Origin: Pseudomonadota bacterium | GTDB taxonomy: Bacteria; Pseudomonadota; Gammaproteobacteria; Steroidobacterales; Steroidobacteraceae | Assembly: GCA_021847105.1 (NCBI GenBank) | Contig: JAJZUT010000018.1 | Coordinates: forward strand, 13,526-77,525 | Length of the DNA: 64,000 nt | Direction: 5' to 3' | Shown here: piece after piece, positions 23,805 through 29,627 of the stretch | How positions within the stretch are numbered: the first letter of the stretch is position 1 | Layout: every line of letters starts with the position of its first letter | Notes under the pieces: model-generated | Seen by the model: only the letters and a program-made list of their open reading frames with translations | Database searches by the model: none | Told to the model about the DNA's origin: nothing | Program-made: the position numbers and the translations under genes

Positions 23805-25025
23805 ATGGTTGCGGTTGTCAACATGCCCGTGCGGGCGCAGGCCGCTGAGGCACCCGAGCCCAGCCCGCTCGAGCTAACGATTCTGATGCCGTGCCTCAAT
23901 GAGGCAGAAACCGTTGCCACGTGCGTGCGCAAGGCGCAGAGTTTTCTGCAGCGCACCGCTGTCGCAGGAGAGATTCTCGTGGCCGACAACGGCTCGAGCG
24001 ACGGTTCTCCCGAACTCGCCCGTCAAGCCGGCGCACGCGTCGTACGCATCACGGCCAAGGGCTACGGCAGTGCGCTACTTGGAGGGATTCAGGCCGCGAG
24101 GGGCCAGTTTGTGATCATGGCCGACGCCGATGACAGTTACGATTTTGCCCAACTCGACGGCTTCCTCTCGGCACTACGTGCCGGGCATGAGATGGTGATT
24201 GGTCATCGCTTCCGCGGCGGTATCCGTCCCGGGGCCATGCCGTGGTTACACCGGTACGTCGGCAATCCCGTGCTGAGCTTCCTCGGACGGCTTTTCTTCT
24301 CCTGTCGGATCGGCGATTTTCACTGTGGGCTTCGTGGCGTCGAGCGTGCGGCCGCACTGCGTCTGGGCCTGCGCGCTCCGGGGATGGAGTTCGCCAGCGA
24401 GATGATCGTCAAGGCCGTGCTCGCCGGCTGGCGAATCGGCGAAGTACCGACGGTGCTGTCACCGGCTGGTCGTTCTCGTCCGCCGCACCTGCGCAGCTGG
24501 CGTGACGGCTGGCGACACCTGCGCTTCCTGCTCATCATGAGTCCGCGCTGGCTGCTCTTCTATCCGGGCCTTTTCCTGATTCTCGTCGGTAGTGCGGCCG
24601 AGGCGCTGATTTCGCATGGGCCATTGGTCATCCATGGCGTGGGATTCGACATCCATACGATGCTCTATGCCGCCGGGGCGACGATCCTCGGCCTGCAGCT
24701 GGTGCTGTTCTCGGTGATCGGGCGCACGATCGGAGTGTTGAAGGGACTGTTGCCGGTGACGGCGAAGCTGCGGATCTTTCTGCGTGCGTTTACGGTGGAG
24801 CGCGGCATCGCTCTTGGCGGCGCCTTTGGTCTCGCCGGGCTGGCACTGGCCGTCTATTCGCTCGATACATGGTTCCGGGTGCGCTTCGGTGCCTTGGATC
24901 CGCTGGCGGCGATGCGTGTTGTGATTACCTCGGTCACGCTGATGCTGGCCGGCGGAGAGATCTTGTTCGCATCGTTCCTGCTCGGTCTGATCGACGTGCG
25001 TCCCGACGGTGGATCCGGAGCATGA
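23805..25025 (+). CDS. family 2 glycosyltransferase with C-terminal multi-TM domain (polyprenyl-phosphate sugar synthase-like, GtrB/DPM1-type)
   Basis: ATG at 23805 preceded by GGAGGA. GT2 motifs LTILMPCLNE, LVADNGSSDGS and DXD IMADADDSYD. About four predicted TM helices after residue ~250. The upstream 75 codons of ORF 23580..25025 are rejected. Confidence 0.8.
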   Translation: MVAVVNMPVRAQAAEAPEPSPLELTILMPCLNEAETVATCVRKAQSFLQRTAVAGEILVADNGSSDGSPELARQAGARVVRITAKGYGSALLGGIQAARGQFVIMADADDSYDFAQLDGFLSALRAGHEMVIGHRFRGGIRPGAMPWLHRYVGNPVLSFLGRLFFSCRIGDFHCGLRGVERAAALRLGLRAPGMEFASEMIVKAVLAGWRIGEVPTVLSPAGRSRPPHLRSWRDGWRHLRFLLIMSPRWLLFYPGLFLILVGSAAEALISHGPLVIHGVGFDIHTMLYAAGATILGLQLVLFSVIGRTIGVLKGLLPVTAKLRIFLRAFTVERGIALGGAFGLAGLALAVYSLDTWFRVRFGALDPLAAMRVVITSVTLMLAGGEILFASFLLGLIDVRPDGGSGA

Positions 25026-27082
25026 CGGTTGGAGATGAGACTCCGCGCGCGCAGCGCGCGGGATTGGCCGCGCCTGCGTGGCTGAGGCGCGCGGCAGCTT
25101 CGCCCCGACTGTGCGTCTACACCGCCTGCACGCTCGCGGCCGTTCTCGTTAGCTTTCTCCTGGGCAAGGAGTTGCTCTGGGACACGATGTACTATCACGT
25201 GTACGCGGGCTTCAGCGCGCTGCACGATCGCTTCGGCAGAGACTACTTTGCAGCTGGGCCGCAGGCGTATTTCAATCCCTACGGCTACGTGCCTTTCTAT
25301 TTGCTGATCCGCACGCGGCTGGCACCTCTCGCAGTGGCCTCAATACTTGCCGTCCTGCAGAGCGCCATCCTGTGGTTGACTTACGAACTCGCTATCACGA
25401 CTGTGCCGCATGCCGCGCCGCGAACGCGCGTGTTGCTCGGGGTGCTCGCGGCGGTGTTCGCGTTCGCCAATCCGATTCTGCTCAATGAATTCGGCTCGAG
25501 TTTCATTGATGTAACCACGGCGGAGTTGGTGCTGGCAGGCTGGCTGATCCTGCTCGGCGCACTGCGTGCTCCGAGAATGCGGCACGTTGTGGCTGCCGCG
25601 GTGCTGCTCGGCGTGGCAAGCGCATTGAAGCCGACCAACGCCGTTCACGCGCTGGCCGGTACGACCTTGCTATTTTTCCTGCCTGGCGGCTGGGGACGTC
25701 GCATATGGGCCGCGCTGCTGTTCGGGCTCGGCGGCGCCGCCGGCTTCGTACTTGCCAACCTGCCGTGGTCGATTCATTTGCAGCGGCACTTCGGCAATCC
25801 CTTGTTCCCGCTTCTGAATGGCTTGTTTCGCTCGCCGAATTTCTGGACGGGATCGATGCTCGACTATCGATTCATCCCGGTGTCGTGGACCGCTGCGCTT
25901 CTGCGTCCCTTCGCGCTGCTGCGCCCGCTGCCGATGCTGCAGTACGAACTTGCTGCCCCGGACATCCGTTATGCCCTGCTGGCTGTCACGGCGCTCGCGC
26001 TCGCAGCGCGTGCATTGTGGCGACGCGTGTTCGGCGGACAAGAGTTCCACCCTGAGGAGGGTGGCTCGCGGGCGCTAATCGCGCTTGGCAGCGGGTTTCT
26101 CGTCGACTGGATTTTGTGGCTCACAGTCTCGGGCAACGGCAGGTACTTCATTCCCATGGCCTGTGTCGCTGGCGTGCTCGCGGTCGTGCTGGTGTTCCGG
26201 TTGCTCGCGGGTCGGCCGCGAGCTCGCGCGTACACACTCACCGCGCTCGTCGCGCTGCAGCTGTTTCAGCTCTATGTCGGCAGCGGCTACCGTGTCTATT
26301 TGCCCTGGGGCGCCGGGCCCTGGTACCACGTTTCATTGCCCCGGCGTCTTGCTGGCGAGAGGGCTCTGTACTTCATGGTTGGCACGCAGACCAATTCCTA
26401 CATCATTCCTGACATGCCGAAGCGTGATGGGTTTGTCAATCTCGGTGGCAATTTCATGCTGACAGCGGATGGCCCGAATGGTGCGCGGGTCAAGGCGCTG
26501 ATCCGTCGGTTCGCGCCGAACTGGTGGGCCGTGCAGCGCGACCCGCGCAGCGATGCGATGCGCGAATCCGGTCTCGCGGGTCGCTCGGCCGTCAATAACG
26601 CGCTGCGCCCGTACGGATTGGCCGTGGCGCCGGGACAGTGTTCAAAGATCGTTGTCAGCGGCGTGGCGATTACCTACACCGTTGCCGTGGCGGGAGGATC
26701 GCCGAATGCCCCCCACACCGAATACCTGACCGCCTGCCGGGTCGAGCGGCTGACGGCAATTCAGACCCATTGGTTCGTGGGCAGGCGGTCCGCCGATCTG
26801 GCACTCGATCACCTGGCAGCCGCCTGTCCGGCGCTGTTCAAGCCACGACGTCCCGGTGACCGAATTCAGGGCGACCGCCGGTATGGTTACTATCTGGCGC
26901 GAGTCTACGCTGACACCGGCGTTATTGCCTGGGTCACTCACGGGGCGGTCGAGTTTCAGAAGCTGATCGGAGGTCGCGAGCAGAACGCCGGGCCGGAGGC
27001 ACTTTGGCAGCGAACGGTGCCAAAAGTGGCCTGCAGCCGCAACGGCAGTACGTATCTGCACATATTGGGCGGGCAGCGGTGA
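25022..27082 (+). CDS. large polytopic membrane protein, putative GT-C-fold glycosyltransferase, with ~250-aa soluble C-terminal domain
   Basis: ATG at 25022 overlaps the GT2 stop (ATGA). About 11-13 hydrophobic segments over ~430 aa. An acidic/aromatic first loop (LWDTMYYHVYAGF...FNPYGYVPFY) resembles ArnT/PMT/GT87-type enzymes. The family call was not verified. Confidence 0.6.
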   Translation: MTVGDETPRAQRAGLAAPAWLRRAAASPRLCVYTACTLAAVLVSFLLGKELLWDTMYYHVYAGFSALHDRFGRDYFAAGPQAYFNPYGYVPFYLLIRTRLAPLAVASILAVLQSAILWLTYELAITTVPHAAPRTRVLLGVLAAVFAFANPILLNEFGSSFIDVTTAELVLAGWLILLGALRAPRMRHVVAAAVLLGVASALKPTNAVHALAGTTLLFFLPGGWGRRIWAALLFGLGGAAGFVLANLPWSIHLQRHFGNPLFPLLNGLFRSPNFWTGSMLDYRFIPVSWTAALLRPFALLRPLPMLQYELAAPDIRYALLAVTALALAARALWRRVFGGQEFHPEEGGSRALIALGSGFLVDWILWLTVSGNGRYFIPMACVAGVLAVVLVFRLLAGRPRARAYTLTALVALQLFQLYVGSGYRVYLPWGAGPWYHVSLPRRLAGERALYFMVGTQTNSYIIPDMPKRDGFVNLGGNFMLTADGPNGARVKALIRRFAPNWWAVQRDPRSDAMRESGLAGRSAVNNALRPYGLAVAPGQCSKIVVSGVAITYTVAVAGGSPNAPHTEYLTACRVERLTAIQTHWFVGRRSADLALDHLAAACPALFKPRRPGDRIQGDRRYGYYLARVYADTGVIAWVTHGAVEFQKLIGGREQNAGPEALWQRTVPKVACSRNGSTYLHILGGQR

Positions 27083-27101
27083 GCCTGCGGTCTGCGGCGC
27101 C

Positions 27102-29015: not shown

Positions 29016-29219
29016 CTGCACCGGACTCTCGCGTTGATCAGGCGCTGGAGTGGAGGCGCCGCACGCCAATCCGCCTGAAGGCTGGTATTATTATGTCATC
29101 CCAGTGGGCGGCACTGCGATGGGCGTCGCAGATTTATTGCGAGCGGTGCGAAGGCGCGCCAAGTCGCGTAATGGCGCGGCGGGCTTGAAGCCAGGGTGGG
29201 AGTGCTCCAGAGTAATTAT

Positions 29220-29627
29220 ATGAACGGGCGGTGGCTGAGGTTTGTGCGGTTTTGCGCTGTAGGGGCGCTTTGTTTTGCGCTCGGGCTTGCCATCCTTGCG
29301 AGTTTGCATGAACTGGCCGGCGTGAATTATCTGGTCGCCTACGTCGTATCGTTCGTGGTCACCAACGTTGTGGGCTACCTGCTCAACGCGCGCTTTACGT
29401 TTGCATTGCGGTCGGTAGCGCATACCGGTGTGATCCGTTACATGACCGTCAACGCCATTCTGCTCGGTGCGAATACCCTGGCGATGATGCTGCTCGTCGA
29501 GCGAATGCGCCTGTGGTATCTGTTCGCGGCCGTCTGTGTGGCCCTGGTCAACACGCCGTTGAGCTTTGCGGGGCAGTGGCTGTTCACCTACCGCGCACAG
29601 GTTCGCGCGCGTGCTGCAGCGGTCTAA
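29220..29627 (+). CDS. GtrA family membrane protein
   Basis: 135 aa with four TM segments. GtrA-like start RFVRFCAVGALCFALG and LNARFTF motif. Alternative GTG start at 29196. Confidence 0.75.
   Translation: MNGRWLRFVRFCAVGALCFALGLAILASLHELAGVNYLVAYVVSFVVTNVVGYLLNARFTFALRSVAHTGVIRYMTVNAILLGANTLAMMLLVERMRLWYLFAAVCVALVNTPLSFAGQWLFTYRAQVRARAAAV

Follow-up and report, generated by a model that had tools for sequence, protein, structure and literature searches.

The 64,000-nt stretch of DNA analysed here (the window; positions 13,526 to 77,525 of contig JAJZUT010000018.1) comes from an uncultured, Steroidobacteraceae-like gammaproteobacterium of mine drainage, represented by a metagenome-assembled genome (MAG). 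Next to pilA, the gene for the major type IV pilin, it carries three genes that we consider as one putative glycosylation module, encoding a membrane-anchored family 2 glycosyltransferase (GT2-TM), a polytopic protein of 686 amino acids with a predicted GT-C fold (the GT-C protein) and a small membrane protein of the GtrA family. An earlier, sequence-only reading of this region had assigned the trio to periplasmic sugar transfer of the Gtr type and left the acceptor open; the comparative context described here points to the pilin.

Organization of the pilA–pilR locus

The module occupies an island between pilA and pilR that, as judged by an open reading frame (ORF) map and domain scans, encodes GT2-TM, the GT-C protein, a soluble family 2 glycosyltransferase (GT2b), an oxygenase, the GtrA protein, a methyltransferase and a sulfotransferase fused to tetratricopeptide repeats (TPR). 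The pilA gene (22872–23375, minus strand; Pfam Pilin, 58.7 bits, and N_methyl, 40.8 bits) shares its strand with pilD, pilC and pilB (18789–22691, assigned with Pfam), and the mature PilA of the window is a 160-amino-acid pilin of the ‘long’ class, with a Ser/Thr/Asn-rich loop of around 40 residues between two cysteines. The far boundary of the island is marked by pilR, an ORF for the sigma-54 activator of pilA (32459–33871, minus strand) that is 86% identical to an orthologue in the related locus L001, which contains Response_reg, Sigma54_activat and HTH_8 domains; pilS comes after pilR.

GT2-TM (406 amino acids; 23805–25025, plus strand; Pfam GT2, 79 bits) is divergent from pilA, which lies 430 bp upstream on the opposite strand, and the ORF coordinates leave an intergenic region at 23376–23804. 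A ribosome-binding site, GGAGGA, precedes the ATG start of GT2-TM at 23805 by 7 nt, and the TGA stop of GT2-TM overlaps the ATG of the GT-C gene (25022–27082, plus strand) within the sequence GC ATGA CG at 25022–25025, exactly the kind of overlap that had been noted before. The GtrA gene (29196–29627, plus strand; Pfam GtrA_DPMS_TM, PF04138, 61 bits; cut-off, 26.1) encodes four hydrophobic segments and lies 2.1 kb downstream of the 686-residue gene, in agreement with the distance of about 2 kb given earlier. The stretch 23805–27082 is also represented in four mine-drainage metagenome runs, which contain 0.76–0.98 of its sampled words.

Fold and family of the GT-C protein

An AlphaFold2 model of the 686-residue protein, built from 37 sequences, has a predicted local distance difference test score (pLDDT) of 73 and a predicted template-modelling score (pTM) of 0.74. 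In a Foldseek comparison with the PDB, the top 25 matches of this model are all GT-C enzymes at a probability of 1.0, and the matches of this fold comprise ALG9 (5.6e-8), STT3, ALG12, ArnT (4.8e-4), PglB, AftA, AftB, DPY19 and EmbA/B/C; the first match outside the GT-C group appears at rank 26 with a probability of 0.2, and transporters reach about 0.4 or less. The modelled structure points to a probable GT-C fold glycosyltransferase, and the GT-C assignment of the sequence-only reading holds up.

The family to which the protein belongs is large, with 846 word-indexed matches and, among 1.84 billion representative proteins, 2,913 matches at E ≤ 1e-3, of which 460 reach E ≤ 1e-30. Some of the homologues are named ‘glycosyltransferase family 87’ by NCBI. 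The Pfam model GT87 is matched at E ≤ 1 by 11 of 37 homologues, and three homologues (P0061, 26.3 bits; P0074, 25.6 bits; P0093, 31 bits) exceed its gathering score of 25 over nearly the whole model; a family member of 32% identity weakly matches PMT_2 in place of GT87, and the window protein itself has no match to GT87 (PF09594) even at E ≤ 1. Judged by these sequence comparisons, the protein appears to belong to a borderline sister subfamily of GT87, one that has no characterised member.

By manual assignment from the model, the protein has 11 transmembrane (TM) helices, with the N terminus inside and the C terminus outside. The Arg-rich loops (residues 183–188, 222–227 and 396–403) lie on the cytoplasmic side, obeying the positive-inside rule, and the periplasmic parts are loop 1 (residues 48–99), a strongly conserved loop (residues 249–315) and a C-terminal domain (residues 421–686). 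Loop 1 bears the motif GKELLWDTMYYH, which includes W53-D54-T55. The Asp in this WDT sequence had been singled out earlier as the candidate catalytic residue, and D54 proves to be invariant both in 37 close homologues and in a more distant set of 50 that extends to 26% identity. Among the latter 50, the invariant residues are D54, H59, Y83, P86, K203, W249, P260, P263, R283, R316, R374 and Y375, and Y58 is nearly invariant. In PimE, the catalytic D58 has a hydrogen-bonded partner, Y62, and K195 binds phosphate (PMC12041525). The D54-x3-Y58 arrangement together with K203 resembles the spacing of D58/Y62/K195 in PimE, a likeness of residue pattern, and by this analogy we propose D54 as the catalytic base.

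The C-terminal domain of the GT-C protein

The big soluble C-terminal domain that had been described from the translation corresponds to residues 421–686, a 266-residue region kept throughout the subfamily. Modelled alone from 48 sequences, residues 426–686 (window positions 26297–27079) form a mixed α/β structure with a pLDDT of 87 and a pTM of 0.80. Cys540, Cys572, Cys602 and Cys671 are invariant across the whole family, a pattern that would fit two periplasmic disulfides. A Foldseek search of the PDB found no solved relative (best E = 0.43), and the model suggests that the domain may be a new fold. Residues 521–600 are the most variable stretch of the GT-C protein between orthologues (31–48% identity). 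We infer that the domain is an acceptor-recognition module.

The predicted lipid-sugar synthase GT2-TM

GT2-TM carries the C-terminal multi-helix membrane domain attributed to it before, in the form of four hydrophobic segments (around residues 251–269, 287–312, 335–353 and 378–396). Its closest PDB matches are ArnC (1.7e-8, with residues 23–312 aligned) and the four-TM dolichyl-phosphate-mannose synthase (DPMS) of Pyrococcus (8.7e-8). Among NCBIfam models, AglJ leads (8e-36), together with a haloarchaeal dolichyl-phosphate hexose transferase, mycobacterial PpgS and ArnC, all at scores far under the equivalog cut-offs (124 versus 325 for AglJ and 28 versus 529 for ArnC). The Pfam domain GT2_TM_C (PF26629) is found in GT2-TM orthologues, for example at 83% identity. 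These similarities place GT2-TM, as a predicted AglJ/DPMS-like enzyme, in the class of polyprenyl-phosphate glycosyltransferases. The enzyme class suggested by the earlier comparison with GtrB, ArnC and DPM1 thus stands. We rejected GT2-TM as a GtrB/ArnC orthologue because it has 406 residues and four TM segments, as opposed to around 310 residues and two in GtrB, and no equivalog match.

Several islands (L005, L016, L027–L029, L032, L034 and L049) have a 329-residue family 2 glycosyltransferase in place of the 406-residue GT2-TM. This protein (L005:10758–11747; 28–31% identical) is divergent from GT2b. Its identification as GtrB was unsupported, as ArnC, GtrB and DPMS were not matched in the PDB.

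Conservation and pilus linkage of the module

The association of these genes is not a chance arrangement; it was seen again in over 100 related loci. The overlap or near-abutment of GT2-TM and GT-C genes is kept in relatives at 32–63% identity, and a module that combines GT2_TM_C and GT-C proteins with a methyltransferase and a small protein of flippase-like type recurs at 41, 32, 34, 35 and 35% identity. In L040 (41%) and L041 (32%), the GT-C gene abuts or overlaps the preceding GT2_TM_C gene, and GtrA and methyltransferase genes adjoin. The same partner genes recur in L044, L045 and L048 (34–35%), where the place expected for GtrA is taken by a small EamA-like protein in L044 and where L048 has a 124-residue ORF without family assignment.

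All 33 genome loci with a GT-C gene belong to Steroidobacteraceae or to MAGs of unclassified Proteobacteria, and in every locus with sufficiently long flanks the gene is part of a variable island bounded by pilA and pilR. A metagenome scan with a 12-sequence alignment added 80 further loci, and linkage was counted in the 39 of these that span at least 9 kb: within 6 kb, 34 of the 39 have a type IV pilus (T4P) gene and 28 have a prepilin motif.

The GT-C gene is combined with pilus genes in at least five gene orders. In the window, pilDCBA is divergent from the GT2-TM/GT-C pair (order A). In a lineage whose PilB is about 76% identical, one or two GT-C genes are followed by pilR, the sulfotransferase gene, pilA and pilB (order B). 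A third arrangement runs from pilR through the sulfotransferase, GT2-TM, GT-C and methyltransferase genes, with pilA farther along (order C). In L045, pilA, a 71-residue ORF and the GT-C gene are codirectional and overlapping, followed by GT2-TM (order D). In L048, four tandem pilin genes precede the genes for a GT-C protein, FimB, GT2-TM, a family 2 glycosyltransferase and a methyltransferase, adjoined by chemosensory pilGHIJ-like genes (order E). In orders D and E, the GT-C gene stands at the place of TfpO and TfpW in Pseudomonas aeruginosa (PMC11841053; bioRxiv 10.1101/2020.04.19.049825). The pilin cassette of L048 (5244–11067) is itself unusual, with four major-pilin-like genes, a GT87-like gene and an accessory gene for FimB, which is TfpY-like.

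Sequence variation and tandem paralogues

Against the closest relative, L003, identity falls from the pilus machinery (PilB, 98%; PilC, 96%; PilD, 95%) through PilA (84%) and GT2-TM (82%) to GT2b (68%), GtrA (59%) and the GT-C protein (57%), the most divergent component. A conserved synthase paired with a divergent GT-C protein matches the Gtr paradigm (PMC11194591). The number of tandem GT-C genes per island ranges from one to four, usually with one GT2-TM gene, and in the GT-C tree the paralogue clades are old and common to several genomes. Three or four GT87-like paralogues in tandem with a single lipid-sugar synthase occur in L029 (3729–14789), L027, L028, L070 and L065.

Pilin length follows the same division: ‘long’ pilins (158–164 residues, that of the window included) go with the single-copy GT-C clade and ‘short’ pilins (136–144 residues) with the multi-copy clades. 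The identity of pilA follows that of the GT-C gene with PilB controlled for (partial Mantel r = 0.63, p = 5e-4). As shared ancestry and physical linkage can explain this covariation, it is not independent support for a functional tie.

Accessory genes of the module

GT2b (27102–28106, plus strand; Pfam Glyco_tranf_2_3, Glyco_trans_2_3 and GT2) lacks any hydrophobic or TM segment, and copies 63–73% identical to it are found in most sister islands. Its role may be to build up the lipid-linked donor ahead of the flipping step. The GtrA protein is encoded in almost every sister island, though not always in the same orientation, and is predicted from its sequence family to translocate the lipid-linked sugar. 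Convergent with the GtrA gene and overlapping it by 4 nt is the gene for an S-adenosylmethionine-dependent methyltransferase (29624–30424, minus strand; Pfam Methyltransf_23/25/12/11). Copies of the methyltransferase, 46–60% identical, lie beside GT87-like genes in L048, L066, L071, L075, L077, L089, L091, L095 and L118, and methyltransferases accompany the module in L040 and L041 too.

Comparison with known glycosylation systems

The window module combines a membrane family 2 glycosyltransferase, a GtrA-family protein and a GT-C protein, as do GtrA/GtrB/GtrC, ArnC/ArnT, PpgS/Rv3779, CsbB/GtcA/YfhO and the Citrobacter pentofuranose system. As with the serotype-specific GtrC, the synthase is conserved (75–85%) and the GT-C protein divergent (45–63%). 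The trio contains, however, neither a GtrB nor a GtrC orthologue, GT2-TM having four TM segments and being AglJ/DPMS-like. In further contrast to Gtr systems, the GT-C protein of the window is GT87-like and has an extra 266-residue periplasmic domain; the locus is chromosomal and sits inside a type IV pilus cluster, not on a prophage; conservation extends to a soluble family 2 glycosyltransferase, a methyltransferase and a sulfotransferase; and the likely acceptor is a protein. The overall logic is that of known three-component systems.

With PimE and GT87 the window protein shares a GT-C_A-type fold in its model, and homologues that reach the GT87 threshold, and its D54/Y58/K203 pattern resembles D58/Y62/K195. 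As in mycobacterial GT87 enzymes, several paralogues would draw on a single sugar donor of the lipid-monophosphate type. Unlike PimE, it has 11 TM helices, an external C terminus, a large periplasmic domain and a Gram-negative host, it does not itself match the GT87 model, and its acceptor would not be a phosphatidylinositol mannoside.

TfpW, the D-arabinofuranosyltransferase of P. aeruginosa group IV pilins, likewise lies beside pilA, has a GtrA-like partner and uses a lipid-phosphate sugar donor. TfpW is distinguished by a C-terminal TPR domain, a DDx motif and a need for PPPRS, DprE1 and DprE2, whereas the window protein has an α/β domain with two probable disulfides, the motif WD[ST]xxYH, a donor that would be made by a family 2 glycosyltransferase, and a gene divergent from pilA. 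By these described features we rejected an identity with TfpW: the 686-residue protein has no TPR match in Pfam and the window has no D-arabinofuranose (D-Araf) genes, so that the difference from TfpW drawn in the sequence-only reading is borne out. The lack of DprE1, DprE2 and UbiA homologues that was part of that reading likewise extends, by tblastn, to the whole 64-kb window.

TfpO, PilO and PglL are also pilin-adjacent polytopic enzymes and glycosylate pilin Ser/Thr residues in the periplasm. They belong to the Wzy_C family, use O-antigen units linked to undecaprenyl diphosphate and differ in fold from the window GT-C protein. As no island protein matches Wzy_C in Pfam, we rejected an identity with TfpO/PglL as well. 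The literature searched, of which coverage was incomplete, gave no account of any three-component system, GT87-like or hexose-type, that is tied to pilins.

Proposed mechanism and acceptor

Because fold, family and conserved linkage agree, we regard it as highly probable that the module is a three-component periplasmic glycosylation system that depends on a sugar carried by undecaprenyl phosphate. By homology to ArnC, DPMS and AglJ, GT2-TM would load the sugar from a nucleotide sugar onto undecaprenyl phosphate at the cytoplasmic face. GT2b, the methyltransferase or both may, more speculatively, further modify the donor. The GtrA protein would, as its family membership suggests, help the lipid-linked sugar across the membrane to its periplasmic face, and the translationally coupled GT-C protein would then pass the sugar on to an acceptor hydroxyl, with D54 acting as base and K203 holding the phosphate, as its fold and the PimE-like residue pattern suggest.

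Gene context makes PilA the favoured acceptor, with a probability that we place moderately above even, and the mechanism and this acceptor taken together are slightly better than an even bet. The site of transfer would be a Ser/Thr hydroxyl in an exposed region of PilA, and the disulfide-stabilised C-terminal domain would recognise the acceptor. A likely role would be the variation of the pilus surface against pilus-specific phages, by analogy to TfpO and TfpW of P. aeruginosa, for which such a role against phages is reported.

Several observations weigh against this interpretation. The 686-residue protein has no Pfam, NCBIfam or PDB sequence match (phmmer and two profiles against the PDB); its model is of moderate confidence (pLDDT 73), the TM-scores of its GT-C fold matches are 0.34–0.51, and the periplasmic loops 58–84 and 259–311 are poorly modelled. 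In the window, pilA and the GT-C gene are divergent and do not share a transcript, and a gene on the opposite strand separates the GtrA gene from the GT2-TM/GT-C operon. In the sole RNA run listed, only 0.05 of the sampled words are present, which gives no usable transcript coverage. The division between long and short pilins amounts to one change on the PilB tree. In L040 and L041 the full module has no pilus gene within a distance of 8 kb, and a T4P gene is missing from the 6-kb surroundings of 5 of the 39 long metagenome loci; linkage of the module to the pilus is thus not obligatory.

One alternative concerns the single-sugar step only and is compatible with a pilin acceptor. GT2-TM could prime undecaprenyl phosphate, on which GT2b and the methyltransferase would build and cap a short lipid-linked oligosaccharide in the cytoplasm, and the GT-C protein would pass this glycan en bloc to the pilin, in the style of AglJ/AglG/AglP/AglB in Haloferax. 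This would accord with AglJ as the best NCBIfam match of GT2-TM, with STT3 and PglB among the GT-C fold matches, and with a soluble family 2 glycosyltransferase and a methyltransferase that adjoin the GT-C gene even in the distant loci L044, L048, L040 and L041. The AglJ score is, however, far under its cut-off, GtrA-type proteins go with monosaccharide-phosphate-lipid carriers, and sets of two to four tandem GT-C genes with one GT2-TM gene better fit a stepwise periplasmic addition, as by the mycobacterial mannosyltransferases that depend on polyprenyl-phosphomannose. We consider en bloc transfer possible but unlikely.

A second alternative, in our estimation also possible but unlikely, is that the same module acts on a glycan or glycolipid, whether the O-antigen or core of lipopolysaccharide, lipid A, a capsule or exopolysaccharide, or a periplasmic glycan, in the manner of GtrABC, ArnC/ArnT and the Citrobacter pentofuranose system. 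The pilus location would then reflect the gathering of surface-variation genes in recombination hot spots. Most characterised three-component systems do modify glycans (PMC11194591, PMC11127046), and the founding members of GT87 act on glycolipids (PMC12041525). A conserved soluble family 2 glycosyltransferase with a methyltransferase is typical of polysaccharide loci, and in L040 and L041, away from pilus genes, the module is accompanied by a family 4 glycosyltransferase as well as methyltransferases. Pilin as the acceptor is nevertheless better supported by the adjacency to pilus genes, which is maintained in at least five gene orders and in lineages at 32–57% identity, by the two cases of a GT-C gene immediately 3′ of pilin genes, in the position of TfpO and TfpW, and by the island itself, in which a Pfam scan of the proteins found no O-antigen, core or capsule genes.

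That the 686-residue protein is no glycosyltransferase at all, but a Wzy-like polymerase, an O-antigen ligase, a transporter or an accessory factor of pilus assembly, would suit its want of direct sequence matches and the moderate TM-scores, yet is very improbable given that its significant fold matches are all GT-C, that homologues cross the GT87 threshold, that the Pfam scan gave no Wzy_C match, that the invariant Asp of loop 1 has PimE-like spacing, and that translational coupling to a lipid-sugar synthase persists in distant taxa.

Implications for pilin glycosylation

Glycosylation of pilins governs how the pilus functions, how it is recognised by the immune system and how susceptible the cell is to phages. 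To our knowledge, only two classes of pilin-glycosylating enzyme are known, TfpO/PglL and TfpW. If pilin is indeed the acceptor, the proteins described here would add a third class, hexose-type, with a lipid-monophosphate donor and drawn from a GT-C subfamily without a characterised member. In its fullest form, to which we give an even chance, this proposal holds that GT87-like proteins with a Cys-stabilised domain are a third class of type IV pilin O-glycosyltransferases beside TfpO/PglL and TfpW; that they are served by their own undecaprenyl-phosphate-sugar synthase; that the two to four tandem paralogues build pilin glycans at multiple sites or with multiple linkages, diversifying under phage pressure in Gammaproteobacteria of soil and mine drainage; and that the C-terminal domain is a new pilin-recognition fold.

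The family of the GT-C protein is large and is consistently found within the pilus loci of environmental Gammaproteobacteria. Its conserved synthase and variable tandem GT-C genes make it a natural system in which to follow the evolution of acceptor and linkage specificity, and the module could supply new parts for protein glycoengineering. Were the acceptor a glycan, the module would be one more three-component system of ordinary interest.

Other genes of the islands

The oxygenase gene (28119–29069, minus strand) encodes a P4H-like 2-oxoglutarate–Fe(II) oxygenase (Pfam 2OG-FeII_Oxy_3, 56.5 bits). It is a variable gene that most sister islands lack (present in L032, L053, L054, L056 and L066, at 66–72% identity). 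The TPR–sulfotransferase fusion (30503–32413, plus strand; Pfam Sulfotransfer_3, 159 bits, plus TPR repeats) has copies of 44–60% identity in more than 40 related loci (for example, L069:9595–11466), and one soil lineage has it immediately flanked by pilR and pilA. Its linkage to the pilus cluster is as tight as that of the GT-C gene, and it may sulfate the pilin or a pilin glycan.

Some sister islands (L003/L043, L011, L012, L014 and L032) contain genes for a two-domain PPPRS, DprE1, DprE2 and a second GtrA protein. In P. aeruginosa, the PPPRS/DprE1/DprE2 pathway to D-Araf serves pilin glycosylation (bioRxiv 10.1101/2020.04.19.049825), and its presence in these islands speaks for their link to the pilus. 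In L043, from the same genome as L003, a 669-residue membrane protein (7910–9919) is encoded between pilR and genes for an epimerase, a DAO-type oxidase, GtrA, PPPRS, DprE1 and DprE2. It has no Pfam match, and we rejected it as a GT-C paralogue for want of any similarity to the GT87-like protein; we regard it as a candidate D-arabinofuranosyltransferase without family assignment. Homologues of this 669-residue protein are present in L037, L032 and L008.

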